A stretch of DNA of 61,587 nucleotides from a virus. Lineage: Duplodnaviria > Caudoviricetes. A program made the position numbers and the translations under genes. The stretch spans positions 1 through 61,587 of IMG/VR virus record IMGVR_UViG_3300024517_000020. One strand, 5' to 3'. Under the pieces are notes generated by a model. That model saw only the letters and a program-made list of their open reading frames with translations, did not search any database and was not told where the DNA came from. The number at the start of each line of letters is the position of its first letter. Position 1 is the stretch's first letter. This document shows positions 1-29,234 of this stretch, piece by piece.

Positions 1-2566
1 AATTAAGTCCAACCCATCCCCCCACACTAAATGGTGCTGTGCCACTTGGTAGGTTTGCATTGGAATATGATAAGTTTGGAGAAGCGATAGCGTTGCCGAT
101 TGTTCCAGTTGTTGATGTTCCAGAAAATGTCACTGGTACAGTATTAGTTGAGGAATCTGTAAGAGTAATAGTATCCCAAGTTGCTGTTGCTGTCATTGTT
201 GTTACACCATTTTTAAATATTAAATCATCAATGGTTAGTGTTTCACCACCACCATTAGGATAATTACTATGTTCATTTCTAAACACTATATGATCCAAAT
301 TAGTTGGTGTTGAGGTCATTGTTATTGTTGATAATGATGAAACCAATGTAGAGTATGAAGCATCAGAATAATGATTTACCTTGTAGGTGGTTGCTGACTC
401 TCTTATGATTTCAATATACATTGTTGTGTTATCACCAATGTTACTTCCAAACTGTGAACCATATCCACCAGTAGGATTCATGTTTAGATGTTGATTATCA
501 GCCCAAGTACCACCCAATGGTCTATCTATGTTATCATGTAGATACTTCATTCCAATGAAATCTTGTGAATCTGCACCCGTTGTTACACTATCTTTATCAG
601 ATAATCCAAAGAATACGCCATGAGCCCAACCTACACCATTATGACTTTGAGTAGGCACATGTATTTTTGCCCTTAACAACCATGTGTCACTTGCTGAACT
701 TCCCAAATCATAAACGATTGAAGTATTTCCACCTGTGGTTTGTGTACTAAATGATAATACTCCAGAAGCAATATTGGCATTTGCACGATTGGCAACCCAT
801 CCACTTGATGTGGTGAAATCCTCATCAGGGTTTGCTGGTGGTACACCAGTTGTAGATGTAGTTACAAGTCCATGCAACAATAATTCATTTGAAGTAAATG
901 TAATCTGTGAATCTGAACCTGAATTGTCAGGCAATTCAGTTAAAGCAAACTCGTTTAGGGTACGGAAAACCTTGTAGCCAGTAATTGGTGAGCCACCATT
1001 TCCACTAGTTGGTACATCAGCCCAATCAAGTTCAATCGGGATTCCAGTTACAGTTGATAGGTTTGTTGGTGCATCAGGTGCTATTGGGATTGAATAAACT
1101 ACATTTAATTTGGTTGTTGTACTGCCAAACCCGATAGTTCTTTCTGTGCCATCTCTTACATGATTATCAAAATACCCAGTGAGTGAATATGTGTTAGAGG
1201 ATAAACCATTACCAATTCCAGTTAAACCATTTGAGTTTAATGCTATTGTTTTTCCAGTTCCAGTTGTTCCGCCACCACTGTCAGATGCAGTTATGACAGT
1301 TCCAGTCAGGGCATCATCAACTGTTGTTTGTCCGTCAGGTGGTGTTGTGGATAACTCTCTCCATGTAATGTTTGGCGGACTGTTGCCTGCATAAACTACA
1401 TCATATTCAAGTTCGGCAGAAGTAATTATGCTTGTATCTGGAATTGAAGTGGTATCAAAAGAATAGTAAACTGATTGACATCCCTGATTAGTTCCAGTGT
1501 TTGTTCTTTGGATGTAAGTGGCAGTGTTTGTTGAACTGAATGTGGTTGAACAAGACGAGCCACTTGATGTAGATGTTGTTACTGCCCTACCATAAGTTCC
1601 AGCAGTTGTTGTAAAGGTTGGGTCAATCTCAAGATAGCCTACAAAGGGAACACCCTCTAATCCGTTTGCGTAATCCAAATTAACTTTGTAATCCCCATCA
1701 AAGATTATATTTACATTTGTTAGACTTTCAATACCTGTATCAAAGTCGTAATTGATTGAATCTGTAAGTTGTAAAATTTCTGCTTGATTATCAACAATGA
1801 AGGAACGGTCAAAGGATTGACCATTGTATTGTGCTATTGGGATTACAGTTTCACCTATCACAATCTCACTACCAACATGAACTGTTTGTGAAATTCCTAG
1901 TTGTTCCGTTCCATCATGTGTCACCTTGAAGGTTTCCTTGAATCCTGAATTAATGTCCAGTCTTAATTCTTGTGTAAATTGTTCCACGACTTGACCAGTT
2001 GTGGTAATTGTTTCACCGTTGAAATAACCTGTACCCCCTGTACTGTTTGTAATTAATGTGAATCCAGAAAAGGTCGAATTACCATAAAATAATTCTGCAC
2101 TTATTGGAATGAAAACATCTTCTGTAATATCTTCTGTAATTGTTTTTGTACTTGTAAGGTACACACCATCTTCATATGGAATAGTTGATACGGTACATGC
2201 CTCATCATTGATAGGAAGGTTTTGCCATTGACCATTGTTAAGATATGTTGCAACTGCTGAAACACTTGGAATGATTTGCTCACCGTCAAAACCGTTTTCA
2301 TAAATGGAGTAAGAACAAGAGTCCTTGTCATAAATTAAAGAACCAACTGCATTACTATGAAACATTACCTTTTGGTCATTAACTGTAAGGACATAGTTCT
2401 GCCATGAACCGTTCATTATCCTTTCAGGGTGGGATTGCCAAGTGGCTTGACCAATAGTGAAATCCTCTATCAAATCATAATTTTGTCCAGTTGTTTCTAT
2501 TTCTGCAAATGCTGCACTAACTGGAATTAATAACAGTACAAAAAGGCCAAGAAGGATTTTCATCAT
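1..2566 (-). CDS. Giant adhesin/receptor-binding protein, copy 1 (N-terminal part, truncated by window edge)
   Basis: Not in the ORF track. Reads MMKILLGLFVLLLIPVSAAFAEIETTGQNYDL... (signal peptide), in frame with ...NANLPSGTAPFSVGGWVGLN at the left edge. Colinear with 23442-29234. Confidence 0.9.
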   Translation of the reverse strand, partial: MMKILLGLFVLLLIPVSAAFAEIETTGQNYDLIEDFTIGQATWQSHPERIMNGSWQNYVLTVNDQKVMFHSNAVGSLIYDKDSCSYSIYENGFDGEQIIPSVSAVATYLNNGQWQNLPINDEACTVSTIPYEDGVYLTSTKTITEDITEDVFIPISAELFYGNSTFSGFTLITNSTGGTGYFNGETITTTGQVVEQFTQELRLDINSGFKETFKVTHDGTEQLGISQTVHVGSEIVIGETVIPIAQYNGQSFDRSFIVDNQAEILQLTDSINYDFDTGIESLTNVNIIFDGDYKVNLDYANGLEGVPFVGYLEIDPTFTTTAGTYGRAVTTSTSSGSSCSTTFSSTNTATYIQRTNTGTNQGCQSVYYSFDTTSIPDTSIITSAELEYDVVYAGNSPPNITWRELSTTPPDGQTTVDDALTGTVITASDSGGGTTGTGKTIALNSNGLTGIGNGLSSNTYSLTGYFDNHVRDGTERTIGFGSTTTKLNVVYSIPIAPDAPTNLSTVTGIPIELDWADVPTSGNGGSPITGYKVFRTLNEFALTELPDNSGSDSQITFTSNELLLHGLVTTSTTGVPPANPDEDFTTSSGWVANRANANIASGVLSFSTQTTGGNTSIVYDLGSSASDTWLLRAKIHVPTQSHNGVGWAHGVFFGLSDKDSVTTGADSQDFIGMKYLHDNIDRPLGGTWADNQHLNMNPTGGYGSQFGSNIGDNTTMYIEIIRESATTYKVNHYSDASYSTLVSSLSTITMTSTPTNLDHIVFRNEHSNYPNGGGETLTIDDLIFKNGVTTMTATATWDTITLTDSSTNTVPVTFSGTSTTGTIGNAIASPNLSYSNANLPSGTAPFSVGGWVGLN

Positions 2567-2811
2567 ACATACGCATCCACATCTTTTCTTGATGCTGCAC
2601 TATACATCCAGAACAATATAATTCCGATCCAAAGGGCGGGTAAGATAATAAACACACCATATAGGTTATCACGAATTACTAATTGCTCAGGGGTTGCACC
2701 TACCCAGAATGTCCATTCAAATGCAATCTCATAAAGCATTGGCATGGAAACAAAGTAAACAATAGTTGAGAAGAACATGGCAAATATTCCACGTAAGATA
2801 ATCTGAATCAA
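2563..2811 (-). CDS. Small two-TM membrane protein (possible minor virion protein)
   Basis: Two hydrophobic helices. Stop overlaps the adhesin start. Positional homolog of 29234-29503 (C-termini SAASRKD / VASARGRD). Confidence 0.8.
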   Translation of the reverse strand: MIQIILRGIFAMFFSTIVYFVSMPMLYEIAFEWTFWVGATPEQLVIRDNLYGVFIILPALWIGIILFWMYSAASRKDVDAYV

Positions 2812-3145: not shown

Positions 3146-3172
3146 TCCCTTAGTAGCGTATATAAAAAATTA

Positions 3173-4067: not shown

Positions 4068-5129
4068 TTATGAAGTTTTTTTATTCTCGTCTTTTATCAC
4101 TTTTGCAAGTTCATCCATATCTATACCATGTTCCGATACTTTTTTTCGCACTTGTGTTATTGCAGAAAGTGCAGAGGCAGATAAAGCCTTCTTCTCGGCC
4201 ATTGTAAAGTAAGCCCAATATTTTAAAGCAGTTGCCTTTGATGTGTCAGCTCGCCTTTTACCGTTCTTCATTTTATACACTAGTTCATCATATACGGTTC
4301 GGGCGTTCTTTTTGTCCTTGCGTTGCTCTTTAGGTGATAGACATAGTTGACATTCTTCTTTTGGATAAACCAAACTTCTAACCCCCACACCCGTTGAACA
4401 TAATGCCACTCTCATAGGATCAGAATCCTTGTATCTATAGTTTCTGCCTTCTTCTAATCCATTTACAAAAAAATAACCTTCTTGGGTACTTGTTACATAT
4501 TGTTTTTGAAATCGATAAATTGCTGATCTGTTGGCCATATCCCATCCAAAAGTATTTTTCCAGTTTGCAGCATCCTGATCTGACATGCTAGTTAAGATAC
4601 GAAAATCAGCATCTCTAAGTGCAGGCGGTAATGCCTTTTGATAGTGAATATTGAAAAATGTTATTACTTTTCCCCCCAAAGTGTGCCTGATTGTAGTGAG
4701 TGCGGACACCAATTCTTTTTTTCTCTTGGCATCTTCCATGTCAAGGATATACGAAACATCATCAAAGATCAAAATGTACCTTAACCCCTTTGGCAAATCC
4801 TTTAAGATCTTGTCAAGGTTTCCCAAATCTTTTCCATAAAACCATTTTATGACAAACGGTGAATTAGTCATGCAAGATAATCTATGGCATAACGTTGTTG
4901 TAACCGTACTTTTTCCAGATTCGGATTTCCCAGATAATAAAACAGAAGTGTAAGTTTTATCGCTTCTTTCTGTCTTTCTAATAATTACTGATGCCAGTTT
5001 TGCAATCCATGTTTTTTTAAGAATTGGAATTTTTTCACCTTTGTGCATGTAAAATGTCGTACCCTGAAAACCCGTTGGTTCTTTCAACGATTGCTGCTGA
5101 TCTAACTCAGCTAAGCTAATCCCTGTCAT
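4068..5129 (-). CDS. P-loop ATPase (putative packaging/morphogenesis ATPase)
   Basis: Walker A GKSESGKST and Walker B LIFDD. Homolog of 33500-34573. Start 5129 chosen because it forms an ATGA overlap with the upstream stop. Confidence 0.88.
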   Translation of the reverse strand: MTGISLAELDQQQSLKEPTGFQGTTFYMHKGEKIPILKKTWIAKLASVIIRKTERSDKTYTSVLLSGKSESGKSTVTTTLCHRLSCMTNSPFVIKWFYGKDLGNLDKILKDLPKGLRYILIFDDVSYILDMEDAKRKKELVSALTTIRHTLGGKVITFFNIHYQKALPPALRDADFRILTSMSDQDAANWKNTFGWDMANRSAIYRFQKQYVTSTQEGYFFVNGLEEGRNYRYKDSDPMRVALCSTGVGVRSLVYPKEECQLCLSPKEQRKDKKNARTVYDELVYKMKNGKRRADTSKATALKYWAYFTMAEKKALSASALSAITQVRKKVSEHGIDMDELAKVIKDENKKTS

Positions 5130-5431
5130 TCTGCGTTCTTGTAAGATTGGTACAACTTCAATCTCTCCAATGCGTTGGCCTGTAGGATAAGCGGCATATA
5201 CTTTTCGCAATATTCCATAGCATAGTCCATGTAGTAAGTATCTCCATCTACAGTTGTTGGTACATCAAACTTTGGTAAGTCGTTGATTCTAAAGTTTGGA
5301 GTTAGAGAACTATTCATTAAGTTCATAATATGAATGGCTTTCCGCCATTCGTTAGTTCCGATTGCTTTCATATATCCACCTAATAGGATTCCTGCCACTA
5401 AATCGTAATCAGTTGCCTGCTTGATAGTCAC
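5126..5431 (-). CDS. Conserved protein coupled to the ATPase gene
   Basis: AIGTNEW...MNLMNSSL aligns with AIRTKNW...LNAINSLL of 34573-35166. Same position upstream of the ATPase. Confidence 0.75.
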   Translation of the reverse strand: MTIKQATDYDLVAGILLGGYMKAIGTNEWRKAIHIMNLMNSSLTPNFRINDLPKFDVPTTVDGDTYYMDYAMEYCEKYMPLILQANALERLKLYQSYKNAE

Positions 5432-5757: not shown

Positions 5758-6555
5758 CTATATAGGAAGGTATGGGCGGGGGTTTAGATCATGTGCTTCC
5801 TTATGACACGTCTTGCATAGCAGCATACCATTAGTAGGAATAAGAGATAACTCAGGGTAGAACCCCTTGAACAGTAAATGATGTGCGTTTAATCCATCTT
5901 TGGAATAACATACCTGACAATACTTTTGTTTGTGAATGAGTTTAGACCAACTCATCAAGGCACATTTGTATGCCTTAACTGAAATTTTGTACTTCATTGC
6001 TAGTTTTTTTAAGTATTTTAAATCACATACAAATTTCTTTTCAGGATTATTTTGATACCATTTCTTACTGTATTCTCTATAATGTTCTTTATTATTTTGA
6101 CGGTATTTCTTATCACGTTCTCTAACCCATTCTTTATTATTTTGATACCATTTCTTACTGTGTTCTCTAACCCATTCTTTATTATTTTGACGCCATTTCT
6201 TACTGTATTCTCTAATACTTTCTTTATTATTTTGATAATGTTTCTTTTTATTCTCTCTAATACTTTCTTTATTATTTTGACGGTATTTCTTATCACGTTC
6301 TCTAACCCATTCTTTATTATTTTGACGGTATTTCTTATCACGTTCTCTAACCCATTCTTTATTATTTTGATACCATTTCTTACTGTGTTCTCTCATCCTT
6401 TCTTTATTATTTTGATACCATTTCTTACTGTGTTCTCTCATCCTTTCTTTATTATTTTGATAGCGTTTCTTACTGTATTCTTTATTATTTTGACGCCATT
6501 TCTTATAATATTCTAATTTTCTATAACGCTTAACGTGTTCGTAAAACAACTGCAT
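5758..6555 (-). CDS. HNH endonuclease with N-terminal 15-aa tandem repeats
   Basis: C-terminal CQVC...LNAHH...NGMLLCKTCHKEAH. About 11 KKxxQNNKE repeats. Confidence 0.88.
   Translation of the reverse strand: MQLFYEHVKRYRKLEYYKKWRQNNKEYSKKRYQNNKERMREHSKKWYQNNKERMREHSKKWYQNNKEWVRERDKKYRQNNKEWVRERDKKYRQNNKESIRENKKKHYQNNKESIREYSKKWRQNNKEWVREHSKKWYQNNKEWVRERDKKYRQNNKEHYREYSKKWYQNNPEKKFVCDLKYLKKLAMKYKISVKAYKCALMSWSKLIHKQKYCQVCYSKDGLNAHHLLFKGFYPELSLIPTNGMLLCKTCHKEAHDLNPRPYLPI
6046..6505. repeat. ~45-bp coding tandem repeat (about 10-11 units)
   Basis: Recurrent TTCTTTATTATTTTGA core at ~45-bp period. Confidence 0.9.
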
Positions 6556-7346: not shown

Positions 7347-7378
7347 CATAACACTTAGCAAACACTTAGCATATTTAA
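7347..7378 (-). promoter_or_regulatory. Duplicated promoter cassette, copy 1
   Basis: Minus strand reads TTAAATATGCTAAGTGTTTGCTAAGTGTTATG: TATA box, 2x TGCTAAGTGTT, then ATG. Identical to 7581-7612. Confidence 0.75.
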
Positions 7379-7382: not shown

Positions 7383-7583
7383 TTAATCAAAGTTAAATGG
7401 ATCAATCTTTTTAGAATTAGATTTTTTAAAATTTGAAAAGTGTTGTTCCGCATCTTTGATATTTGTAAATCCATCCGATTCTCCAGTTTTAGTCAAGACT
7501 ACAAATTTAGATCTATGTTTTGTAATTACTGGATATACTCCTACTGCATCTGCATCTTTAATACTTGGATATTTCTTTGGCAT
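7383..7583 (-). CDS. Hypothetical protein (MPKKYPSIK...)
   Basis: The ATG is the last codon of the duplicated promoter cassette. Confidence 0.65.
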   Translation of the reverse strand: MPKKYPSIKDADAVGVYPVITKHRSKFVVLTKTGESDGFTNIKDAEQHFSNFKKSNSKKIDPFNFD

Positions 7584-7612
7584 AACACTTAGCAAACACT
7601 TAGCATATTTAA
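7581..7612 (-). promoter_or_regulatory. Duplicated promoter cassette, copy 2
   Basis: 32-bp exact direct repeat of 7347-7378. Confidence 0.75.
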
Positions 7613-7824: not shown

Positions 7825-8040
7825 TCAGTTATGATTAGCGTAATCCTCTATTACATAGAGTTCTTCTAGTATTTTTTCCCTTTGATTTATGAATGATTCC
7901 ACTTCTCGCATCAGGCTAGGTGCATCCCACTTTGCCGCAATAATGTTTTTCATCCTGCTGCAAACATCCGTATCAACATCCCCAAGTTCCAAGAGAAGTG
8001 CTTCCTCTTGGCGTTGTTTCTTTTTTTCTTCGGGTGTCAT
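7825..8040 (-). CDS. Hypothetical protein (MTPEEKKK...)
   Basis: ATGA-coupled to the stop of 8037-8801. Confidence 0.6.
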   Translation of the reverse strand: MTPEEKKKQRQEEALLLELGDVDTDVCSRMKNIIAAKWDAPSLMREVESFINQREKILEELYVIEDYANHN

Positions 8041-8801
8041 GCTATTGCAATCCTCTGTAGTTCGTGTTGGCATTTACCGTTGTTTCCACTTTTTCCTTTT
8101 GAGAAATTACAGTTCATGCAAAGCAGTTGGAATATTGGGGGATAGTTATTTCTAATAGACCAATCAACTAAACTTGTGTTAGTACCCATTTTCTTTCTAT
8201 GCTGACTACCATTGTTGTATATGTGATCAAGGCTTAGAAAATCAATTTCCTTTTCCCCGCAACATGCACATTGAATTATCCCATTTCCGTAATGCAAATA
8301 GGTTTCTTTCTTTCTTTTAACTACCCTTTGTATTATCTTCTCAGGGTTTTTTGCTTTCCATTCTCTAGATTTAAGCACTCTTTTCTCTCTATGTTTTTGA
8401 TAACTTTTTCTATTGATTTCTTTATATTTTTCTTTATTTGCTATGATTCTTGCCTTTTGCAGTCTGTTTATTTCGTCTTTATGTTCTTCATTATACTTTC
8501 TCTTCTGCTCTTTGATTTTCTCTCTATTCTCTTCTCGCCATTTTGCTTGTTGTGCGTTTAGTTTCTCTTTGTTTTTTTTCCTATATTCTTTTGACTTTAA
8601 CGCAATTTTGTCTTTATGTTCTTCACGATACTTTCTCTTTTGTTCTTTGTTTTTCTCTTTATTTGTTTCATTATACTTTCTCTTTTGTTCTTTAATTTTC
8701 TCTTTATTTGTTTCATTATACTTTCTCTTCTGTTCTTTGTTTTTCTCATAGTACTTTCGAGATGCTTCTTTTTTTCTCTCTCGTTTTTCTTCGGGTGTCA
8801 T
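8037..8801 (-). CDS. His-Me finger (HNH/endonuclease VII-like) nuclease with charged N-terminal repeats
   Basis: CACCGE...LSLDHI...LLCMNCN at the C-terminus. KEQKRKY repeats at the N-terminus. Confidence 0.8.
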   Translation of the reverse strand: MTPEEKRERKKEASRKYYEKNKEQKRKYNETNKEKIKEQKRKYNETNKEKNKEQKRKYREEHKDKIALKSKEYRKKNKEKLNAQQAKWREENREKIKEQKRKYNEEHKDEINRLQKARIIANKEKYKEINRKSYQKHREKRVLKSREWKAKNPEKIIQRVVKRKKETYLHYGNGIIQCACCGEKEIDFLSLDHIYNNGSQHRKKMGTNTSLVDWSIRNNYPPIFQLLCMNCNFSKGKSGNNGKCQHELQRIAIA

Positions 8802-9427
8802 TATGCTGCAGCCCTCACTTTATAGATGGGATTCAATCTATGAACTTCTTTATGATGAACCTTGCACAATGGGATGCCATTATTTTCATTCAAAGAAAGT
8901 TCTGGAAAGTATGTTTTGAACAATATATGATGGGTGTTTAATCCGTCATTTGATCCACATATACCACACTTAGCCCCATGTTTTTTCTTTACAGTTTTAC
9001 CCCATGCTAATAACGCCCAAGCATATTCATCCCATTTTAGATTAAAGGGTTTTCCAAACTTTGTAAGGGATTTTTTTGTAGATGCTAATTTTACTTCGGG
9101 GTTTCTTTCATTGTATGCTTTAGCATAAGCCACCCTTTCGACCATGTGAATTTTAGAGTATTCCCTTTTTTGTTTAAGGATTCTTTCTCTATTACTCCAA
9201 TGCCATTCTTTTTTCCCCTGCAATAGTTTATCTCTATTTTTTTCCTTGTACTTTCTTACTTGTTCTTTGTATTTTGTAGTATGTTTTACTTTGTTGTGGT
9301 ATGCTGCTTTTCTTGCTTTTAGTTTCTCTTTGTTCTTTTCCCTGTATTCTTTTTTATTCAAGTATATGGCATGTTTGTTTTTTTCTCTATACTGTTTATG
9401 ATATTCTCTTTTTTGTTCTGGAGTCAA
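8801..9427 (-). CDS. HNH endonuclease with charged helical N-terminus
   Basis: CGICG...LNTHH...FPELSL..NGIPLCKVHH. Paralog of 5758-6555. Confidence 0.85.
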   Translation of the reverse strand: MTPEQKREYHKQYREKNKHAIYLNKKEYREKNKEKLKARKAAYHNKVKHTTKYKEQVRKYKEKNRDKLLQGKKEWHWSNRERILKQKREYSKIHMVERVAYAKAYNERNPEVKLASTKKSLTKFGKPFNLKWDEYAWALLAWGKTVKKKHGAKCGICGSNDGLNTHHILFKTYFPELSLNENNGIPLCKVHHKEVHRLNPIYKVRAAA

Positions 9428-16640: not shown

Positions 16641-17711
16641 TTAAACTAACCCTTGTTTCTTTAATCGTTCCATAACATTTCTATATTTTTTCATTTCTCT
16701 TTGAATATCCTCAATTTTCTTGTTTTCAATTTCTAATTTCTTGACTTTTTGAATATTTTTGGGATTCTCAAAGATGGTTAATCGTGGCTCTAACTTTAGA
16801 TATTTCTCTATTCTAACTGCTTTTTCAAGTCTAAAGTATTGACCTAGATATGCGGTGTGCCCCGTCATGGCATGGGCATACCCATCTCCGTTTTCAAGTG
16901 AAGCCCATGTAAAGAAAAAGGATCTAAAATTATGAATCGTTTTAGTATTTCGGCCTGTAAGGTATTTTTTATTAAACCCTATTCTTTTTCTAAGATTTCC
17001 AAAATATTTCATCTCAGCAACCCCCCAACAGTATTGCTGTATCTTTTCTTTTACATTATATGGTAGAGTACGATTATGGAAAACAAAATCTTCATCCTTT
17101 TTGTCTTTGGTAATTTTTTTAATTGCTGCAAGTGCTTCTGATGAAAAATAACCCTCATGTTCTTGGCCTGCTTTTGTGTTTCCTGCACGAATCTTAAAAC
17201 TAACTGGACTTGAATCCCAATCAACATCCATCATTCTAAGGTATAGTAGTTCTGAAATTCTTTTTCCAGATGATGCCAATGTTAAGTATAGAGCCTTTCT
17301 TTTTTGATCAGCGTTGGAAATTATTTCTTGAATTTCTGAGAGTGCCAAAGGTTCTAAGTTTTCTTTTAATTTTTTTGGAAAAGAAACTTCTGATTTCAAT
17401 CTCTTTTCTTCCAAGTAAACGCCTTGTGAACGCCACCAATCTTTAATCCAATTAAAATAATTTTTTGCAGTTGCAGGATCTAAGGTTTGGCACATGTGAT
17501 TAACTAATCTGTTTGCGAACGTGTAGTTTTTAGCACCCCTGAATGGATCTTCTTTTCGCATTTCATCTAAAAGTAATTCTTCATTTTCATTTTTAATAAA
17601 TTTGTAATATGATTTTAGTGCAGATTTTGCTAAATTTCCAGTATTCAAATTATTGGCATATTTTCTTTTCAACCATTCTTCAAATGTAACATAATTGTCT
17701 AGCATTGTCAT
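16641..17711 (-). CDS. int: Tyrosine recombinase/integrase
   Basis: Catalytic R (SSGKRISE), K (TKAG), HxxR (HNFR), H (MTGH), Y (GQY). N-terminal core-binding domain and C-terminal coil. Confidence 0.92.
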   Translation of the reverse strand: MTMLDNYVTFEEWLKRKYANNLNTGNLAKSALKSYYKFIKNENEELLLDEMRKEDPFRGAKNYTFANRLVNHMCQTLDPATAKNYFNWIKDWWRSQGVYLEEKRLKSEVSFPKKLKENLEPLALSEIQEIISNADQKRKALYLTLASSGKRISELLYLRMMDVDWDSSPVSFKIRAGNTKAGQEHEGYFSSEALAAIKKITKDKKDEDFVFHNRTLPYNVKEKIQQYCWGVAEMKYFGNLRKRIGFNKKYLTGRNTKTIHNFRSFFFTWASLENGDGYAHAMTGHTAYLGQYFRLEKAVRIEKYLKLEPRLTIFENPKNIQKVKKLEIENKKIEDIQREMKKYRNVMERLKKQGLV

Positions 17712-17834
17712 GCTTATCTATACTTAGCAGTTGCTTATTAATTATACTAAACAAGGTAAGTAATCCTTGAAAACTAGCCCCTAGAGGCTAATTAATTATA
17801 ATACCTATAATAGACACTATATTATATAATATTC

Positions 17835-18176
17835 ATGCCTGAAAACGCTTTTACAAATCTTTCAATCGCATGGGATGTTTCAGATCAGTTAAAACGAGAA
17901 TACAAAAAGGCAGCACCTAAAGACACTACCTTCACTAGATGGGTATCAAATACGCTAAGTCTAGCCATTGAGAAGCATAAATTTATTTCAACTCTATACC
18001 CTCATTTTGAAATTATTGGCAGATTGCAAGAAATTGTAATGATTAAAAACACAAAAAATAATGAAAACATTACTCTAAAGTTTGGCAAAAAACCAAACTG
18101 CAGCAAACATGGTGATAATATTACCTGTGAATGTATGGCATTTGCCTTTTTCTCAGGATTTAAAAATCAAAATTAA
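17835..18176 (+). CDS. RHH-like regulator with C-terminal Cys motif (distant paralog of 16145-16492)
   Basis: NLSIAWDVSDQL...FTRWVSNTL, plus CSKH...CEC. Divergent from the integrase. Confidence 0.6.
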   Translation: MPENAFTNLSIAWDVSDQLKREYKKAAPKDTTFTRWVSNTLSLAIEKHKFISTLYPHFEIIGRLQEIVMIKNTKNNENITLKFGKKPNCSKHGDNITCECMAFAFFSGFKNQN

Positions 18177-21039: not shown

Positions 21040-21128
21040 TATAAACTCCTATGAGCTATACCTCGAATATTCCCCATGCGAAATAGACGAGATATAACCA
21101 TGACTACTAATTACGTTTAGCATATTTA

Positions 21129-21548
21129 TTAAATTACTGAAATACCAATTAGAACAGATTCTTTTTGTACTATCTCAATAAACTCTTTGTACTTGTTTCC
21201 ATCACTTTCTAAATGAGTTAGTTCGGCATATTCTGCAACATGTTTGATGTTTACTGCAAATACCTTATGCCCCATCTTGATGGGGAAAAATGGCCTGCAT
21301 GAAGTATCGTTTGGAAACTCATTCCATAGATTAATGATTTCCTCAAATTCACAATAGATCTTTTCAAACTTTTTTAAATCAGATTCGTGATCTTGTTTCT
21401 TTGTAATCTTCTTTAAGCAGCATTGACATATTTTATTTTCAACGTATGTAATATGACCGCAAGGATAACAAAAGAGAGTTTTCTTTGTGGTATTTTTGAT
21501 ATTACCTAACTGATGGCGGCAATCGCCTTTGTGATACTGTAAGGTCAA
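21129..21548 (-). CDS. Cys-rich hypothetical protein
   Basis: CYPC...CQCC. Confidence 0.65.
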   Translation of the reverse strand: MTLQYHKGDCRHQLGNIKNTTKKTLFCYPCGHITYVENKICQCCLKKITKKQDHESDLKKFEKIYCEFEEIINLWNEFPNDTSCRPFFPIKMGHKVFAVNIKHVAEYAELTHLESDGNKYKEFIEIVQKESVLIGISVI

Positions 21549-21892
21549 CCGTCTTTATTTAACATGGACATTAAACCCCTATCAGGTTTGCCCTTGTTCT
21601 CCATACGATATTCTGCCTTTGAAGTTGTTGTGGTTAGTTTATCTAACATCTTTCCGTTTAGACTTGGGAACGCTGCTAGAGAATAATCAAATGCCAATCC
21701 CTTTGAGGATAATCTTTTTCTTAATCGTCTATCAATGTGTCTTGCTCTATGGTGGTATTGTTCCACATCTCTAACCAATAAAATAGCACCCACATCAGGA
21801 AAAATACTTGTCTTATACCCTAACATTCTAGGATCAATATTGCCTTCTGAATCCCCAGCTCCACGCTTTACAATATCTTCTAATGACGACAT
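21545..21892 (-). CDS. Conserved hypothetical protein
   Basis: C-terminus (LDKL...Y...RGLMSMLNKD) matches 32338-32811. Confidence 0.7.
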   Translation of the reverse strand: MSSLEDIVKRGAGDSEGNIDPRMLGYKTSIFPDVGAILLVRDVEQYHHRARHIDRRLRKRLSSKGLAFDYSLAAFPSLNGKMLDKLTTTTSKAEYRMENKGKPDRGLMSMLNKDG

Positions 21893-21937
21893 GGTTAAAC
21901 CTACTAATTAGATTTAGTATATAGATTTAGTGTAATA

Positions 21938-22342
21938 TCATTGTGGATAGTGAATCCTTTGCTGAATTAATTGGAAAAGCATTATTCCCATAGCAATAGC
22001 TGCCAACATTAATCCTATTCTGTATGCTTCTGGACTCAATCCAGTTATTGCCCCTGCTGCAACAAGGCCAACAATTCCAACAAGTGCGGTGTTTTGTACT
22101 CTAATCCATAGAACGGAAATCAAGATACCCCATAATATTGCAATAGTCAGATCTCCAAAGATAGGATCATAGGCCTTGAGCATAGCACCAAATGGATCAT
22201 CTAACATTCCACAAAGCGGATCAACCCCGTCAGTTTTTTCAAAACAATAGTCGCCTGCAGCAAAAGCAGTTGGAACGGATATACATAACATGACAATAAC
22301 GCCTAATGCTGCAAGTAACATTACTAAGTATCTACTAAGCAC
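21938..22342 (-). CDS. Multi-TM membrane protein with Cys pair
   Basis: Homolog of 30558-30977 (CF...CG...aL.pfd.i.G). Confidence 0.78.
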   Translation of the reverse strand: MLSRYLVMLLAALGVIVMLCISVPTAFAAGDYCFEKTDGVDPLCGMLDDPFGAMLKAYDPIFGDLTIAILWGILISVLWIRVQNTALVGIVGLVAAGAITGLSPEAYRIGLMLAAIAMGIMLFQLIQQRIHYPQ

Positions 22343-22356
22343 CCGTAATTAAAGAA

Positions 22357-23406
22357 TTAATCTGCTTTAACCCATAATTGAGGAACTTTTGAAGTGGAAT
22401 TATCAATTTGCTTCACTACTACAGTTTCTTCAATAGATTCAATGGGTTCAGGTTGTAATGTTCCAACTATCTCTGTGGCTTCTTCTACTACTGTATCAAC
22501 TACAGTTGGTGTTGTTACAACATCAGCAACAACAGGTGCAGCAGCTACAGGTGCATCTTTGGCCAAGAAGGGCAGGAACGTTCCCAAATCACTTCCTGCC
22601 AATATCATAACTGCTATTGCACCGCCAATTAGAACTGCAAAGATAACTGCAGCACTTGCGAAATTCTTAACTTCTGGACTACCCATTTTACGAATCTTAT
22701 CGGCATACCTTTCTGCTGCATCTAATAGAGTGTCAACATCAGCAGGGTTGTAAGTGTGGTAATCTTCTAAGAATCTTTGTGCATCCATTGATATGGCTTC
22801 TTGGATTTCTATTTTTTCCAAGTTTCTTAACTTTTCAACTAATTCAACAAAAGAAACATCCCCTGATTCAATTTGATCAGAGAGTAAATCGGCATCTGAT
22901 TTCTCTATCAGGTTTGCCCTAACTAAAGATTCAACTAAGACCAATCCTTGTTCTTCATCAGGTAGCTGTACCTCGTCTAGTTGTTTTGAAACATCATCAA
23001 TTTTTGTATTGATCTTTTCTTGTTTGCGAACAAAAATATCCTTTAATCTTTCAATGGCTTCTTTTGGCTCATATCTGCCAATTAGTTTTCTTAACTCAGA
23101 GCCATGTCTAACATCTTTTCTTTTAATCTTAACTAACTTGTTTTTGTAAGCAAAATCATCTAGTGCTTTCATTACTCTAGGATCTACAGGTTTTGCGGAA
23201 CGTGTGTCATAAAAGTAAACTACGGTTTTACCATATCTAATTCCCTTTTGAGGATCAACCTCAAAGACACCTTGATTTTTAATTAAAAAGAATTTGGTGT
23301 GAACTATCTTTACATAATGAATTTGTAAACCTACAGGGGTAAACATCATAACTACCGCCTTTCGTGAATTACCCATTTGCCTACTAGGAAAATGAAATGC
23401 TAACAT
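22357..23406 (-). CDS. Membrane-anchored protein with helical cytoplasmic domain
   Basis: Single C-proximal TM and acidic tail. Same architecture as 31002-32036. Confidence 0.8.
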   Translation of the reverse strand: MLAFHFPSRQMGNSRKAVVMMFTPVGLQIHYVKIVHTKFFLIKNQGVFEVDPQKGIRYGKTVVYFYDTRSAKPVDPRVMKALDDFAYKNKLVKIKRKDVRHGSELRKLIGRYEPKEAIERLKDIFVRKQEKINTKIDDVSKQLDEVQLPDEEQGLVLVESLVRANLIEKSDADLLSDQIESGDVSFVELVEKLRNLEKIEIQEAISMDAQRFLEDYHTYNPADVDTLLDAAERYADKIRKMGSPEVKNFASAAVIFAVLIGGAIAVMILAGSDLGTFLPFLAKDAPVAAAPVVADVVTTPTVVDTVVEEATEIVGTLQPEPIESIEETVVVKQIDNSTSKVPQLWVKAD

Positions 23407-23441
23407 GGTTAGTATTTACTTAGTAGGTTAGTATATAGAGT

Positions 23442-26400
23442 TTACAGGAATTTCTTTCCTATCATTACACCCAATGCACCCATGATTAACATAAGTCCAA
23501 AGATGCCTTCATCAATAATGAAGAATCCTAATCCCATGAGTATTCCAACTGCTGCCAATAATATTATGATAAACGTTGGTGCGGTTCTTCCAGTTGCTTG
23601 GCCTGCAATTAACAACACAAAGATTACAATCATTGGTGCACCCAAGATAGAATAGGAAGTTTCTGCACCCGTAACTGGATCAACTGTAGTTGTACCAAGT
23701 GCTGCATCAAGTCCTGATAATCCAGATAACAAGGCGTTACTTCCTAGTGCTTCTGATTGTGCTGCAAACTGCAAATCATTATCACTCCAACAATAAACAT
23801 AGATGTTATTTCCTTTTGCAACATTTACAGTAGCATCATAAATATTTACATTATTTTGAGTTGTGTATGCTAAACCACTTGGTAAATTATTTAGATCTCT
23901 TATTTGGCCTGCGGTGCTTGGTGTCATAAAGGTACAAGAGCCATTAAATGGGAATGTATCTTTAGCCCACTTTAATTCAATTTCATCAGCAGCAGAATCA
24001 GTTGGGTGTGGGGTTCTTGCAATAGTATAAGCAATAGTTCCGCCCCCTTCTGCAGCACCCACCCTGCTAACTGTAGCACCTGTAACTAGTAGAGAATTGG
24101 AATTATACGTTGTAGTATCTCCATTACTTGCAGTAGCTGCAATTAACAAGCCATGTTGAATTGCATCAGGTAGTGTAATGGCATAAGTTCCTGTAAGGCT
24201 TGGATTGTTAATCGTACTAACTATAGCCCCATCCAAAACAAATTCTATCTTATCAAGTGTAGGAGTTGGATTTCCTGCAACTGTAATTGTATTATCTATA
24301 ATCACAACATCACCCCATGAGTTGTTTAGTGTAATTGTATTTGTTCCAGTTGGCGGGGTGTTTGTAGTTACTGTTATAACATTACTCCAAACAGAAGCAC
24401 CCACATTGTTAATTGCTCTAACCTTAATGTCATAAGCAGTATTTCCAGTTAATCCAGTTTGTGAATCTGCATTAACTAAACCCACATTAGTTGTTACTCC
24501 ATCAACTGAAATTTCATAAGATATTAGATTAGAATTATTATCATTTGGAATAGTCCATGTAGAATCTATCTGTGAGGAATTAACTGCACCGCTTGTTAGT
24601 ACAGGTGCATCAGGTACATTAGGTGTTGTAATGGTAGAATAACTGCTTTGTAATCCCTCGCCAACATTATTCAAACTGGAAACTTTGTAATAATATTGGC
24701 CTGCAGCACTTACAGTATCAACATAACTGAAAACTGAATTTCCCAATGTAGTTAGTAAAGTGTAAGTTACATCATCAGAACTTTTGTAGATATTATATCC
24801 AGTAATGGCAGAACCTTGATCATCAGGACTTGCAGTAAATCCTATTGCAATATCTAACGGATTACTGTTTGGATTAGAAATTGTAGTAGATATGGTTGCA
24901 GGTGCATCAGGTACATTAGGTGTTGTAATGTTTGCAGTATTACTATTCCCACTAGTTCCATGTGTTGAAATTGCTTTTACATAATGAGTGTGAGATCCTA
25001 TTGAAACTGTATCGGTGTAAGAATTAACTAAACCAACTGTATCAATTAATGTGTTATCTCTGTATATTTCAAATCCAGTTAAAGTTCCCGAACCTACATT
25101 TGTAGGGCTAGAGTATTGTAAGAAAACATCTAAAGGAGAATTATTTGTATCTTGAATGGTACTAGTTAATCCCGTTGGTGGATTAGGTGGCGTTCCTGCA
25201 AGTCCAGATACGAAAGGAGTAAGGAAAGCACTATCACCAATGGCATTGGTACTTTTTACAGAATAATAGTAGACATTTCCACCCACAACCGTTCCATCAT
25301 CATGTTCTGAAAGGGTAGGTGATGCGATTAGACTTGGTGCGACACCCCTCTCATAGATGGTATCAATTTCTGTGCCAGTGAGGGCATTAGAGTTGATGAA
25401 ATATTCGTCAAGTGTTCCGTCTAGGGTTGTGGTGTAATCCACTGGAACAATCTCGTTCAAGTCAGAAGTTATAACAGGTTGATAACCGTTTGCAGGAGCT
25501 GAAACAGTATGTAAGTAATATTCTGTATTGGTATTACTTGTAGTGAATGTATGTCTTAATACGTTGTTTTGATAAACTTCAATATTTCCTGAACTATTAA
25601 CTGTCATTTTCCAGTTATCAGAATTACTGTAACCACCACTGTAAAGATAATCAACTGAACCACCTATCATCATATATGCACCGTTATTAGCACTGTTGAA
25701 GTATATTCCAAAACCAATATCATTTTGAGCACCCGAACCGTATGAAGAACCTACTGCACTTAATCCAGTCTTTGCAGAATCATCTAATGATTGTGTAAAT
25801 ATTACTGAATCCCCTGTACCAACTGTTCCCATAGAACGACATTCAGATGGACTTGAAGAAGTACCAGTATGTGTTGCAGATGAACCACTTATAGTACAAA
25901 GTGTATTACTTGAAGATTCCCAATATACAGTTTCACTACTACTACCCAAACTTGTAGCATCAGTTGCAGTTGTTTTTGAAATTCCATTCTGATAGATAGT
26001 CCAAAGGTTTGATGAATCTCTAGTGAATGAATAGTGCTGTGGGGTTACGGTGTTGTCAGTTAATCCAGTTGCAGAAACCATTACACCCCCTGTTTGATAA
26101 TCATTTGTAATATCCCCAAATCTATAATTTGTTGCAACAAAATAATATGAACCACTTGCAGTATTAGTTGATGTGTACAATGATACACCATTTTTCATAT
26201 AATTGACTACGCCACTTGATGATACATCAATACTAAATGTATCTGTAATACTCCAACTACCATGTGTCGCCCAATTATTTACACCTGCTCCCCCCTCAAC
26301 AATTATAATCCCTGAACCATCAGTATACATTGCAAAGTCCATTCCAGAATGGGATGCACCACTTGGAATTGATGTTGCTTTATCAATACCCACCATTTGA

Positions 26401-29234
26401 TTGGTGTTAGGTGATGATGTGCCACCCAAACTATATGGAAAGGAAATACCATTTGAAATTGAAAAAGAATCAATTGTTCTAATCCAGTTATTCCATCCTA
26501 TTGTGGTATGTGTTGGCGTTACAGTTGCACCGTTAATTGTAAATCCGACTGCACTTGCTGAATCCCATGCTGGTGATACAATGTTGTCAACACTTGCACT
26601 GGTCGTTCCGACTGTAAAGGTTACGTCATTGATGTTGAGGAGTTTGGTGTCAGTTGGAGAACCGTTAAGTCCAACCCATCCCCCCACACTAAATGGTGCT
26701 GTGCCACTTGGTAGGTTTGCATTGGAATAACTCAAGTTTGGAGAAGCGATAGCGTTGCCGATTGTTCCAGTTGTTGAGGTTGCAGGGGTTGTTTGGGTTA
26801 CACTCACACCGTTGGTCGAGGAATCTGGGATTATTGTTACAGTTCCAGTTGTAGAACTGACACCGTTGTAGAAATTCCAGTCGTCTATTGTAAGTTCTGT
26901 ATCACCAGCAGATGCAGTTGTATCCCAGTCAACATTGGCTATCTTGAAATATCTCAAATCACCTGTTGCAGTAATTGTTGATGAAGCAGTACCCTCTAAG
27001 GTTGAATAAGTATAGTCAGAATAAACGTTAAGTGTTGCAGTTGAACCATCACGAATTAACTCATACCAATAATCAGTTCCAGTTGTAGGGTAAAATGAGT
27101 TAGATACAACATCAACACCACCATAAAATGCACTGTTATCTGCCTTTAACTTTATTCCATTAGTACCTTGTTGAGTTACTTGAAATGATATATGATTTTC
27201 AGATGTATTTGATGCAGTTGTTTCATCATTAGTGCCAAATCCAATACCAAACAATGTCGATACACCAGCAGTTGATATATTCATCTTCCATTGTGTTATC
27301 CATTTGTTTGAATCGACAAAGTTTGCACCCATATCTCTAGCCACATAGGCGTGAACCCCAGTAGAGTATGGCTGGTCAACATGAAGTACGTCATTTGTAG
27401 TGTCCACATAGGTGTAAGCAGTATTCTCACTTGACCATACTGCATTACCAGCAGTTACATCTGCATAACCTGAGAAATCGTCAGTGGTTGGCGTTACAAC
27501 AACACCACTAAACCCATGCAACAACAATTCATTATCAGTAAATGTAATCTGTGAATCTGAACCTGAATTATCAGGCAATTCAGTTAAAGCAAACTCGTTT
27601 AGGGTACGGAAAACCTTGTAGTTAAGAATTGGTGAGCCACCATTTCCACTTGTTGGTACATCATCCCAATCAAGTTCAATCGGGATTCCAGTTACAGTTG
27701 ATAGATTGGTTGGTGCATCAGGTGCTATTGGGATTGTGTATTCAATTTGTAATTCTATATTTGTAAATCTCAAATGTGAAATATTTGCAGTATTTAGATA
27801 ATTAATAAATGAAAATCCTAATCCAAACTCATCATCACCAGCTACCGTTGATGCAATATCTGCATCAGCACTTGTACCTAAATCCTGAACTGTATTGGTT
27901 TGAGTACCATTACATTCTGAAAATGATGAAACATAACTTGTACCATCTTCGGGATCTGTGTATGCTTCGGTATTAGTATAACCTGAAATTGGGGATTCTT
28001 CTATGGAATAAATTTGACAGTTTCGTGGGGTTGTTGATGTTGTAACATCATATTCAATAAATGAATCTGTGACAGTAATAGAATCAGGTAAACTTGATAG
28101 ATCCCAATATTCGGTAAATCTCGAACATTCCCCACCGTTATTTGTAAGTGCGGGAACATAGATAGTTCGTGCAGTTGGTGAACCTTTTGTGTTTGCACCA
28201 CCCGCACAAGTATTATCACTTCCGTTCCATGAGGTATTTAATTTTGAACCTGAAATTGTTGAACCTGTGGTTAATGCGAAAGTAGGATCAATTTCCAGAT
28301 AGCCTACAAACGGTTCACCGTCTAATCCGTTTGCGTAATCAAGATTAACTTTGTAATCCCCATCAAATATTATGTTGACATTTTCTAATGATTTAATTCC
28401 AGTTGAAAACTCGTATGATACACTATCAGTAAGTTGTAAAATCTCTGCTTCATTGTCTATGATAAATTGCCTGTCAAAACTTTGTCCGTTTAGTTCTGCT
28501 ATGTTAATTGTTTGGTCGCCTATGGTTATTGATTCACCTGTATGAACCGTTTGTGAAATCCCTAATTGTTCCGTTCCATCATGTGTCACCTTGAAGGTTT
28601 CCTTGAATCCTGAATTAATGTCCAGTCTTAATTCTTGTGTAAATTGTTCCACGACCTGACCAGTTGTGGTAATTGTTTCACCGTTGAAATAACCTGTACC
28701 CCCTGTACTGTTTGTAATTAATGTGAATCCAGAAAAGGTCGAGTTACCATAAAATAATTCTGCACTTATTGGAATAAAAACATCTTCTGTAATATCCTCA
28801 GTAATTACTTTGGTACTTGTAAGGTACACCCCATCTTCATATGGAACAGTTGATACGGTACATGCCTCATCATTGATAGGAAGGTTTTGCCATTGACCAT
28901 TGTTAAGATACGTTGCAACTGCTGAAACACTTGGAATGATTTGCTCACCGTCAAAACCGTTTTCATAAATGGAGTAAGAACAAGAGTCCTTGTCATAAAT
29001 TAAAGAACCAACTGCATTACTATGAAACATTACCTTTTGGTCATTAACTGTAAGGACATAGTTCTGCCATGAACCATCCATTATCCTTTCAGGATGGGAT
29101 TGCCATTCTGCAACACCTATTGTAAAGTCCTCTGTTAAGTCATAATTTTGTCCTACTGTTGTTTCTATTTCTGCAAATGCAGATGGTATAGCGATAACTA
29201 ACAGCAGTGATAGAACTGGTATAACCTTGTACAT
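23442..29234 (-). CDS. Giant adhesin/receptor-binding glycoprotein, copy 2 (complete, 1930 aa; FN3 repeats, LamG/lectin-like domains, C-terminal TM anchor)
   Basis: Signal peptide, PDAP...W...Y...Y.V.A.N..G FN3 signatures, LamG motifs (FSVGGWV...HYSFTRD...IYQNG...LDEY), hydrophobic C-terminus. Confidence 0.92.
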   Translation of the reverse strand: MYKVIPVLSLLLVIAIPSAFAEIETTVGQNYDLTEDFTIGVAEWQSHPERIMDGSWQNYVLTVNDQKVMFHSNAVGSLIYDKDSCSYSIYENGFDGEQIIPSVSAVATYLNNGQWQNLPINDEACTVSTVPYEDGVYLTSTKVITEDITEDVFIPISAELFYGNSTFSGFTLITNSTGGTGYFNGETITTTGQVVEQFTQELRLDINSGFKETFKVTHDGTEQLGISQTVHTGESITIGDQTINIAELNGQSFDRQFIIDNEAEILQLTDSVSYEFSTGIKSLENVNIIFDGDYKVNLDYANGLDGEPFVGYLEIDPTFALTTGSTISGSKLNTSWNGSDNTCAGGANTKGSPTARTIYVPALTNNGGECSRFTEYWDLSSLPDSITVTDSFIEYDVTTSTTPRNCQIYSIEESPISGYTNTEAYTDPEDGTSYVSSFSECNGTQTNTVQDLGTSADADIASTVAGDDEFGLGFSFINYLNTANISHLRFTNIELQIEYTIPIAPDAPTNLSTVTGIPIELDWDDVPTSGNGGSPILNYKVFRTLNEFALTELPDNSGSDSQITFTDNELLLHGFSGVVVTPTTDDFSGYADVTAGNAVWSSENTAYTYVDTTNDVLHVDQPYSTGVHAYVARDMGANFVDSNKWITQWKMNISTAGVSTLFGIGFGTNDETTASNTSENHISFQVTQQGTNGIKLKADNSAFYGGVDVVSNSFYPTTGTDYWYELIRDGSTATLNVYSDYTYSTLEGTASSTITATGDLRYFKIANVDWDTTASAGDTELTIDDWNFYNGVSSTTGTVTIIPDSSTNGVSVTQTTPATSTTGTIGNAIASPNLSYSNANLPSGTAPFSVGGWVGLNGSPTDTKLLNINDVTFTVGTTSASVDNIVSPAWDSASAVGFTINGATVTPTHTTIGWNNWIRTIDSFSISNGISFPYSLGGTSSPNTNQMVGIDKATSIPSGASHSGMDFAMYTDGSGIIIVEGGAGVNNWATHGSWSITDTFSIDVSSSGVVNYMKNGVSLYTSTNTASGSYYFVATNYRFGDITNDYQTGGVMVSATGLTDNTVTPQHYSFTRDSSNLWTIYQNGISKTTATDATSLGSSSETVYWESSSNTLCTISGSSATHTGTSSSPSECRSMGTVGTGDSVIFTQSLDDSAKTGLSAVGSSYGSGAQNDIGFGIYFNSANNGAYMMIGGSVDYLYSGGYSNSDNWKMTVNSSGNIEVYQNNVLRHTFTTSNTNTEYYLHTVSAPANGYQPVITSDLNEIVPVDYTTTLDGTLDEYFINSNALTGTEIDTIYERGVAPSLIASPTLSEHDDGTVVGGNVYYYSVKSTNAIGDSAFLTPFVSGLAGTPPNPPTGLTSTIQDTNNSPLDVFLQYSSPTNVGSGTLTGFEIYRDNTLIDTVGLVNSYTDTVSIGSHTHYVKAISTHGTSGNSNTANITTPNVPDAPATISTTISNPNSNPLDIAIGFTASPDDQGSAITGYNIYKSSDDVTYTLLTTLGNSVFSYVDTVSAAGQYYYKVSSLNNVGEGLQSSYSTITTPNVPDAPVLTSGAVNSSQIDSTWTIPNDNNSNLISYEISVDGVTTNVGLVNADSQTGLTGNTAYDIKVRAINNVGASVWSNVITVTTNTPPTGTNTITLNNSWGDVVIIDNTITVAGNPTPTLDKIEFVLDGAIVSTINNPSLTGTYAITLPDAIQHGLLIAATASNGDTTTYNSNSLLVTGATVSRVGAAEGGGTIAYTIARTPHPTDSAADEIELKWAKDTFPFNGSCTFMTPSTAGQIRDLNNLPSGLAYTTQNNVNIYDATVNVAKGNNIYVYCWSDNDLQFAAQSEALGSNALLSGLSGLDAALGTTTVDPVTGAETSYSILGAPMIVIFVLLIAGQATGRTAPTFIIILLAAVGILMGLGFFIIDEGIFGLMLIMGALGVMIGKKFL
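25357..27630. repeat. 2,274-bp direct repeat, copy 1
   Basis: Appears identical to 59314-61587. ORF-track entries recur at offset 33,957. Confidence 0.95.

Follow-up and report, generated by a model that had tools for sequence, protein, structure and literature searches.

Two viral genomes joined in one contig carry mosaic adhesin genes with exchanged cassettes

The window analysed here is the whole of the IMG/VR record IMGVR_UViG_3300024517_000020, an assembly that consists of a single 61,587-bp contig, in which three stretches encode related giant proteins that we name adhesins. The contig is composed of two separate viral genomes, unit A of ~26.7 kb and unit B of 33,957 bp, which are joined inside their homologous adhesin genes because both genes share long identical or near-identical stretches. 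Recombinational exchange of cassettes between the adhesins of A and B, and among those of many relatives, is well supported. Each adhesin is predicted to be a secreted, C-terminally membrane-anchored giant protein with a conserved N domain, variable lectin-like or beta-sandwich cassettes and an FN3 stalk. The cassettes appear to be placed between, or in loops of, the parts of a conserved scaffold, which comprises an FN3-like unit and a LamG-like unit in four pieces with three insertion sites. We put the probability of the whole explanation, i.e., two joined genomes whose scaffold-borne cassettes were exchanged by recombination, at about 75%.

Two genomes joined within mosaic adhesin genes

Nearly all long open reading frames (ORFs) of the window, three giant ones among them, are located on the minus strand, as are the adhesin domains, hinges and cassettes described below. 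Copy 1 (2-2566) encodes the 5' part of an adhesin (residues 1-855) next to the A backbone and is cut at its 3' end by the start of the contig. Based on the ORF list and the alignment, it holds a signal peptide, the N domain, cassette V1(A), the FN3-like hinge H, cassette V2(A) and the start of the LamG-like scaffold. Copy 2 (23442-29234) encodes a complete adhesin of 1,930 amino acids (aa), in which a signal-peptide-like stretch at the start is followed by the N domain, V1(B), H, V2(B), the LamG-like scaffold with two inserted cassettes, the FN3 stalk and, at the end, hydrophobic helices as the putative C-terminal membrane anchor. Copy 3 (56793-61586) encodes the 3' part of a B-type adhesin (1,597 aa) with B-type stalk and anchor, and its 5' end is cut by the end of the contig.

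The first-pass annotation had described copies 1 and 2 as alternating between near-identical DNA blocks and divergent domains, and all three of its block pairs were reproduced by self-blastn. The conserved N-terminal domain of copy 2 (28279-29180) pairs with 1614-2512 at 87.7% over 908 columns, with a core (1901-2410) that is 98% identical; no family was found for this domain, and an Atlas search with it gave no usable match. Hinge H, an FN3-like scaffold unit (27514-27736), pairs with 870-1092 at 94.2% (223 nucleotides (nt), E 1e-94), and hinge h (26665-26785), which is LGa, the first piece of the split LamG-like scaffold, pairs with 3-123 at 95.0% (121 nt, E 4e-49). Between the blocks lie the V1 cassette (allele B at 27737-28278, allele A at 1093-1613) and the V2 cassette (allele B at 26786-27513, allele A at 124-869), and both turned out to be the expected divergent domains, saturated at silent sites and 13-33% identical in aa.

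The contrast between blocks and cassettes was quantified in sliding windows of 30 codons, with the proportion of synonymous differences (pS) as the measure of silent change. Nucleotide identity is 92-100% in the N-domain core (pS 0-0.20), 82-93% in hinge H (pS 0.05-0.32) and 88% in hinge h (pS 0.17), versus 36-50% in V1 (17-33% in aa; pS 0.53-0.66) and 33-58% in V2 (13-57% in aa; pS 0.41-0.93). Among codons for identical residues, silent differences are found in 20 of 261 in the blocks (N core, H and h) and in 60 of 109 in V1 and V2 (Fisher p = 3e-22). Five pairs of homologues on the A and B backbones are only 29.5-41% identical as proteins. The two claims that the blocks are alike even at synonymous sites and that other A/B homologues are weakly similar thereby stood, and the A/B mosaic requires recombination between two viruses with barely related backbones. 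The mosaic is finer than an alternation of hinges and domains, as the N domain is itself mosaic, with silent differences in 8 of 148 such codons of the core and in 31 of 87 of the 3' third (p = 5e-9). The hinges of copies 1 and 2 are 5-6% different and contain exact runs of 24-65 nt; a search of viral contigs with the exact 65-nt hinge pattern gave no match.

Copies 2 and 3 are related in a different manner. They are identical over 2,274 bp without a single mismatch (25357-27630 = 59314-61587). This repeat includes V2(B), the beginning of the scaffold and both of its cassettes, and it extends to the final base of the contig; its two copies are offset by 33,957 bp, which is the length of unit B. 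A short block common to these copies had been noticed before; it is exact over 38 nt (25287-25324 = 59244-59281) and lies just beyond the repeat in a zone of ~80% identity. Together with the last scaffold piece, LGd, it occupies 25287-25439, where copies 2 and 3 turn from identical to divergent. Just 2 nt from its start, the contig enters a 65-nt exact match to 26665-26729, a sequence located directly after the first 1.3 kb of the repeat.

Relatives of the adhesin were collected by a protein-guided scan of IMG/VR, which gave one, and from a metagenome collection, which gave 42 from 234 candidate stretches. Their layout separates the two genomes. Copy 2 is flanked on its 5' side by the B backbone, while its 3' end (from ~24929 downward) and 3' flank are A-type. 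The B-type relatives L001 (27.3-kb contig), L016 (35.7 kb) and L026 (29.1 kb) each consist of B backbone, one adhesin and B backbone; the 5' end of their adhesin matches copy 2, with the match running from 32810 to 28770, and the 3' end matches copy 3, from 58337 to 56172 at 75-80%, continuing into B genes. The A-type relative L013 (27,871-bp contig) carries its A backbone contiguously up to the 5' end of a copy-1-type N terminus, followed by one adhesin, whose 3' end matches 24929 to 23442 and passes into A backbone to 20824 (79.6% over 24929 to 20824) and to 19283 at lower identity. The first-pass annotation had counted three copies as if in one genome; they are instead parts of two single-copy genes of two genomes strung together by assembly. 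Our reading is that the assembler walked through A into the stretch common to A and B, went once around B and stopped on re-entering the repeat. Copies 1 and 3 were also considered as one gene that spans a circular junction. That idea was rejected, since two bases remain between their frames and the V2 alleles in the 968-nt overlap are not the same.

Sequencing depth agrees with two genomes. In Logan contigs of four seawater runs (X1, X5, X6 and X10), compared over window positions 17000-33000, A and B backbone depths differ in all four: 13.9-19.5 for A and 9.1 for B in X1, 16.4-18.7 and 1-4 in X5, ~300-390 and 7-69 in X6, and 5-8 and 0-3.5 in X10. The depth over 25358-26616 in X1 is 27.7, approximately the sum of A (19.5) and B (9.09). 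In X5 an even depth of 14.2-14.5 extends from the A-type 3' end (24604-24928) via the scaffold cassettes and V2(B) to V1(B) (27663-28479), and since B is nearly absent from this run, the haplotype with V2(B) and V1(B) rides there on an A backbone.

Cassette exchange among relatives and the split scaffold

Sixteen homologues were read and nine scaffold regions were aligned. The same short conserved stretches recur in the aligned regions, separated by segments of very different length and sequence, and the alignment resolves four conserved pieces (LGa to LGd) around three variable sites in a unit of ~160 aa. Site 1 is empty in copy 2; site 2, between LGb and LGc, holds a cassette at approximately 26091-26582 (about residues 885-1048), and site 3, between LGc and LGd, holds another at approximately 25434-25919 (about residues 1106-1267). 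All three sites are empty in P0007 (residues 753-909), and site 1 is filled with Laminin_G_3 modules in L012 and L013. With a model built on the scaffold columns, the pieces were detected in 32 of 40 proteins, of which 10 built the model and three are duplicates.

The clearest replacement is seen between L012 and L013, which come from one time series. These two share 99.6% identity over 4.0 kb on one side and 99.99% over 6.5 kb on the other side of an unalignable middle of 1.5 versus 2.0 kb, and the swap spans from just after LGa to just before LGd. The LGd junction, at which copies 2 and 3 diverge, is a breakpoint also in L012/L013 and in L006/L019. Single cassettes can likewise be traced between distant proteins. 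V1(B) of copy 2 is 93% identical in aa to the V1 of the divergent L015, with nucleotide identity rising from 84 to 100% and pS of 0-0.18, whereas the N domains of the two have a pS of ~0.6 and the hinge after V1 drops to 52-78% nt identity. Conversely, the N domains and hinges of copy 1, copy 2, L002 and L003 are 88-96% identical in nt, and their four V1 alleles, which share a family motif, are 23-31% identical in aa.

The modules of 37 proteins were clustered site by site at 70% identity, and the resulting table extends these observations. Most modules are unique in the table. Within it, V1 is the sole difference between L001 and P0017; a single site-2 allele is combined with two types of C terminus, and alleles of sites 2 and 3 are common to different C-terminal types. 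P0001, otherwise a different protein, contains the site-3 allele of copies 2 and 3 at 70% identity or more. Several haplotypes coexist on one backbone within single samples: X6 and X10 contain contigs that match both flanks of the V2 region (26785 and 27510) and have a different sequence in between, as well as a form without 25444-25939, which is the site-3 cassette, and these alternative forms have depths of 113-121 on an A backbone of ~330. The exchange can also be larger than a cassette. The genome BK067790 (L046) has a B backbone that is 84-89% identical to the window on both sides of the adhesin, and this DNA identity ends exactly where the gene begins (29236) and is regained in the stalk (58325). 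Its adhesin (2286-9191) has an N-terminal part of ~1,470 aa that lacks the FN3/LamG scaffold and is 23-25% identical to the N domain of the window. Taken together, the silent-site contrast, the backbone protein identity of only 29.5-41% and the replacement and sharing of whole cassettes in relatives bear out the earlier proposal that distantly related viruses exchange adhesin domains by recombination.

Three further observations concern the cassettes and their carriers. Modules of the Gly_rich_2 family occur at differing positions, before the FN3-like hinge in L017 (residues 388-611), at the V2 position in P0001 (residues 751-1007) and at site 2 in L006 (residues 885-1151), and cassette families are therefore not tied to one site. 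The A-type adhesin 3' part in X6 and X10, otherwise 99% identical, contains at 24429-24498 a diverged stretch of 68 nt and the same length, a small replacement tract in the stalk. L019 (Ga0233412_10001171) combines an N domain that is 94.7% identical in nt to the B-type L010 with a 3' half and downstream genes that are 97% identical to L006, a third backbone type, and is a natural recombinant or else one more chimeric contig.

The fold of the scaffold was approached by profile comparison. Aligned by hhalign with Laminin_G_3 modules, a scaffold-only profile reached a probability of 96.2% (E 2.3e-9), confined to its C-terminal columns 84-153 of 162, and 23 of the 30 Atlas feature matches of the insert-free scaffold are Laminin_G_3 (PF13385) clusters, with a score of 0.94. 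With moderate confidence, the scaffold is LamG-like as judged from these profiles. Inserted cassettes of relatives match PF13385 directly, e.g., residues 818-980 of L013 (66.8 bits). In the giant ORFs themselves Pfam recognises FN3 alone, in the distal half; the stalk matches PF00041 at residues 1550-1622 of copy 2 (37.8 bits) and over two stretches of copy 3 (64.2 bits). Hinge H is probably an FN3-like unit, an assignment that rests on recognised motifs, with no Pfam match to hinge H alone. From our reading of the sequences, these motifs are conserved in relatives, and P0001, P0006 and P0018 contain a further domain inserted inside H.

Recombination at the hinges and rival explanations

The first-pass annotation regarded the hinges as conserved DNA that serves as platforms for homologous recombination. 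Conservation of the hinge DNA holds for the A/B pair, in which the hinges are 94-95% identical and contain the exact runs mentioned above. As a general feature it does not hold: across the family the hinge pieces have a median pS of 0.50-0.72 (35-54 pairs), compared with 0.61 in the N domain and 0.59 in the stalk, and at most three pairs per piece have a pS below 0.2. Such family-wide saturation means that long homology at the hinges is not general. The hinges therefore look like pieces of a conserved protein scaffold and not like special DNA, and their DNA identity in this window reflects recent exchange between two co-occurring viruses. An approximate hand tally places 12 of the 16 in-gene breakpoints in scaffold pieces (roughly 15% of the gene) and the other four away from them; breakpoints are found inside the N domain and inside V1 too. 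In the mechanism that we propose, viruses co-infecting one host would undergo crossover in the conserved stretches that encode the scaffold, and the outcome would be a change in the host surface structure bound by the virus. Hinge-guided homologous recombination and a role in host range may be suggested.

Several points weigh against this explanation, besides the saturated hinges and the four outlying breakpoints. We infer the change in binding and host range, and we assume the location of the adhesin on the virion. The Atlas matches of the scaffold share 129-152 features, fewer than the 170 typical of true family members. No Pfam family was matched at E <= 1 by the insert-free scaffold of P0007, the scaffold region of copy 2, V1A, V1B, V2A, V2B or hinge H, and the scaffold profile had no match among PDB sequences at E <= 10. 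The AlphaFold2 models of residues 816-1300 of copy 2 (9 alignment rows; predicted local distance difference test score (pLDDT) 45.1) and of the insert-free scaffold (10 rows; pLDDT 40.2) are unusable, and the site-2 cassette is the only part of the former with a pLDDT of 55-85. All relatives are metagenome assemblies, and short-read assemblers cannot phase over shared stretches of 0.5-2 kb, so some of the links between cassettes and backbones, including those of the window, may be wrong. The Logan contigs, moreover, give one depth per contig and no read pairs.

Two accounts fit the breakpoint pattern, crossover in conserved stretches and survival solely of chimeras joined at domain borders. 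According to the latter, selection for foldable chimeras places the breakpoints at the hinges, and the exchange itself is illegitimate or microhomology-mediated, or proceeded through longer tracts that later eroded. The saturated hinge pS of the family, the breakpoints inside the N domain and V1, and BK067790, in which the entire N-terminal 1,470 aa are replaced, all favour it; the 94-95% identity of the A/B hinges, whose exact runs of 24-65 nt are enough for homologous exchange, and the concentration of breakpoints in a small part of the gene speak for crossover. We regard the selection account as possible, though doubtful. A different question is whether the contig could be a real molecule of 60-62 kb, a cointegrate or tandem of A and B that arose by crossover in the shared adhesin stretch and left hybrid genes. 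A single crossover of two circles that share 25357-26662 would give the observed order, copy 2 is indeed a hybrid with a B-type 5' and an A-type 3' end, and the B depth in X1 (9.1) is below that of A, so that in principle all B could reside in cointegrates. This is nevertheless unlikely: the contig ends overlap over 968 nt in register with different V2 alleles, which prevents closure of the circle, the depth of copy 2 in X5 is ~14 from its A-type 3' end up to and including V1(B), against 1-4 for the B backbone, and all relatives of 27-36 kb are single units.

If the window is a concatenation produced by assembly, the mosaic itself might be suspected as an artefact as well, i.e., as chimeric paths through k-mers common to strains. 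Logan contigs break, with many loose ends, at 26587-26785 and 27510-27716, and the joining of a B-like N domain to a third-type 3' half in L019 would suit such an origin. However, separate assemblies show the same combinations (L001/L008/BK067784, L006/L007 and L011/L013), the depth in X5 is coherent from the A-type 3' end via both cassettes to V1(B), and hinges that are 5-6% different between copies 1 and 2 represent separate paths and not one collapsed node. Near-identical hinges on otherwise unrelated backbones are, whatever the phasing, the signal itself. We consider an artefact still less probable than a real cointegrate. Least probable of all, and very unlikely in our view, is divergence of the variable domains in place, by targeted hypermutation of the type of diversity-generating retroelements or by extreme positive selection. 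The V1 alleles are homologous, as their family motif indicates, which would be expected from it; yet the V domains are saturated at silent sites next to flanks with pS of 0-0.2, the cassettes are of unequal length and belong to different fold families (Laminin_G_3, Gly_rich_2 and several unnamed types), and the machinery is not in evidence.

Specifically, Pfam found no reverse transcriptase family in any of the 17 ORFs of at least 250 aa, and self-comparison of the window revealed no template/variable repeat pair and, by self-blastn, no opposite-strand match at E < 1e-5 that would represent an inverted repeat. A diversity-generating retroelement and switching of the invertase or shufflon type were both rejected on these results. 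The earlier statement that the system has no reverse transcriptase or invertase stood in this respect, with the reservation that the window encodes two tyrosine integrases, at a distance of 6-12 kb from the adhesin genes.

Recombination between the two viruses, as preferred here, could be part of a wider system. Tentatively, and with clearly less confidence than in the exchange itself, we propose that virus families of marine ammonia-oxidising archaea share a pool of lectin-like modules that are plugged into fixed loop sites of the FN3/LamG scaffold. Turnover would be fast, with several combinations per 99%-identical backbone in one sample and crossovers in the scaffold-coding stretches, which would amount to an enzyme-free combinatorial receptor repertoire at the population level.

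The two viruses, their other genes and known systems

The ATPase places the two units differently. That of unit B is 91.3% identical to the protein of BK067784, 88.2% to BK067782, 85.7% to BK067789 and 89.9% to BK067790, all marine 'Nitrosopumilaceae spindle-shaped virus' records, and unit B most probably belongs to this group. That of unit A is 28-32% identical to the GenBank relatives over 52-65% of the query, which makes A a distant relative at best, apparently a distant lineage that carries the same adhesin family. In the available text of Ni et al. 2024 (PMC10866085), the group comprises 11 complete genomes of 27-38 kb (BK067782-BK067792), the size range of its GenBank records, the ATPase is a core gene and no family-B polymerase was found. 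Unit B (33,957 bp) lies inside this range and unit A (~26,662 bp) just under it, and no polymerase family was detected among the 25 window ORFs scanned with Pfam, including all 17 of at least 250 aa. Three GenBank records of the group match the adhesin N domain at 71%, 63% and 54% identity, and four match the B-type C terminus at 69-83%; there the giant gene is annotated just as 'ORF12', 'ORF7' or 'ORF10'. The host, Nitrosopumilaceae or marine ammonia-oxidising archaea, is taken from Ni et al. 2024 (PMC10866085), and the words adhesin, receptor, fibronectin, integrase and recombination are absent from the main text of that paper as available to us. A 'Methanobacteriota archaeon' metagenome-assembled genome was rejected as a pointer to the host, as its one weak N-domain match (35%, 2.7-kb contig) is too little to name one. 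Within a limited collection of papers, we found no description of mosaicism of this adhesin.

Beyond the adhesins, G+C is ~36% across the window, which contains no tRNA genes, and each unit has its own tyrosine integrase, P-loop ATPase and HNH protein. The A backbone (2567-23441), which with its adhesin forms a unit of ~26,662 bp as calculated from the repeat offsets, encodes the ATPase (4068-5210), the HNH protein (5758-6555), the integrase (16641-17711) and a 959-aa ORF (18160-21039). The B backbone (29235-56792), for which the repeat offset gives 33,957 bp together with its adhesin, encodes the HNH protein (29886-30527), the ATPase (33500-34573), the integrase (41235-41813), a D5-like primase-helicase (44007-45668; DUF5906 and D5_N), a PAPS-reductase-like protein (47429-48544) and a 1,537-aa ORF (50888-55501). 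The primase-helicase and the PAPS-reductase-like protein are present in unit B alone, and neither is among the scanned ORFs of unit A. The second giant ORFs of the units, 50888-55501 in B and 18160-21039 in A, match no Pfam or PHROG family. The former is 88.7% identical in nt in BK067790, whose adhesin has its N-terminal half replaced, so this neighbouring giant gene is conserved and the adhesin is not. PHROGs gave no family for 10 backbone and giant proteins, and megablast of window positions 1-25000 against GenBank phages gave no match. Tandem-like internal repeats of 75-82% identity occur at 6046-6514, within the ORF of the HNH protein of unit A, and at 8347-8747, within ORF 8037-8801; ORFs 5758-6555, 8037-8801 and 8801-9427 are paralogues (29-40% in aa). 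Two pairs of short direct repeats were noticed, one of 32 nt that is exact (7347-7378 and 7581-7612) and one of 42 nt at 97.6% in the intergenic region just downstream of copy 3 (55913-55954 and 56171-56212).

The adhesin is the largest gene, about a fifth of unit A or B, and the most variable locus: its cassettes are present, absent or replaced within single samples, and the rest of the genome stays 99% identical. This variability marks it as the likely attachment protein and a concrete target for binding studies. Few cells in the ocean are as abundant as ammonia-oxidising archaea, and how their viruses recognise them is almost unknown. There is also a practical warning, namely that assemblers, led by shared stretches, merge different viral genomes into contigs that are too long, as in the present case.

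Nitrosopumilus spindle-shaped viruses have linear genomes with a protein-primed family-B polymerase. The present viruses are unlike that family, the Thaspiviridae, in that no polymerase family was found among the scanned ORFs and both units carry tyrosine integrases. They are similar to the Thaspiviridae (NSV1-3) in the proposed host group and in genome size, which is 27-29 kb in the available text of PMC8491892. The closest likeness is to the Nitrosopumilaceae spindle-shaped viruses (PMC10866085), which unit B resembles in ATPase (86-91%) and size, with unit A at just 28-32% in the ATPase.

For the adhesin itself, the nearest parallels are found in phages. Smug et al. 2023 (PMC10684548) describe, in the text available, phage receptor-binding proteins that are mosaic at the level of protein fragments and diversified by ongoing fragment shuffling. 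The likeness lies in host-interacting proteins diversified by the shuffling of fragments; theirs are from bacterial viruses, and the available text makes no statement on archaeal spindle-shaped viruses or on insertion sites in a split scaffold.

An older parallel is that of the T-even phages. Recombination between conserved motifs in their distal tail-fibre adhesins (gp37/gp38) reportedly swaps adhesin specificity, a finding attributed to Tétart et al. in 1998. As in gp37/gp38, hypervariable segments are bounded by short conserved motifs, adhesins are mosaic between viruses and no dedicated enzyme is involved. Motif DNA similar enough for homologous exchange is seen between copies 1 and 2 (94-95%, exact runs of 24-65 nt), but not across the family, where the hinges have a median pS of 0.50-0.72. 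Unlike the T-even phages, the present viruses are archaeal and non-tailed, they exchange entire domains (150-450 aa) that represent several fold families and are in many cases nested in loops of a scaffold domain, and an effect on host range would be a deduction. The mosaic-adhesin principle of phage tail fibres may thus be extended to non-tailed archaeal viruses with an unusual architecture of nested insertions. The principle is already known from phage tail fibres; the novelty lies in the group of viruses, in the scale and in insertions nested within a split scaffold.

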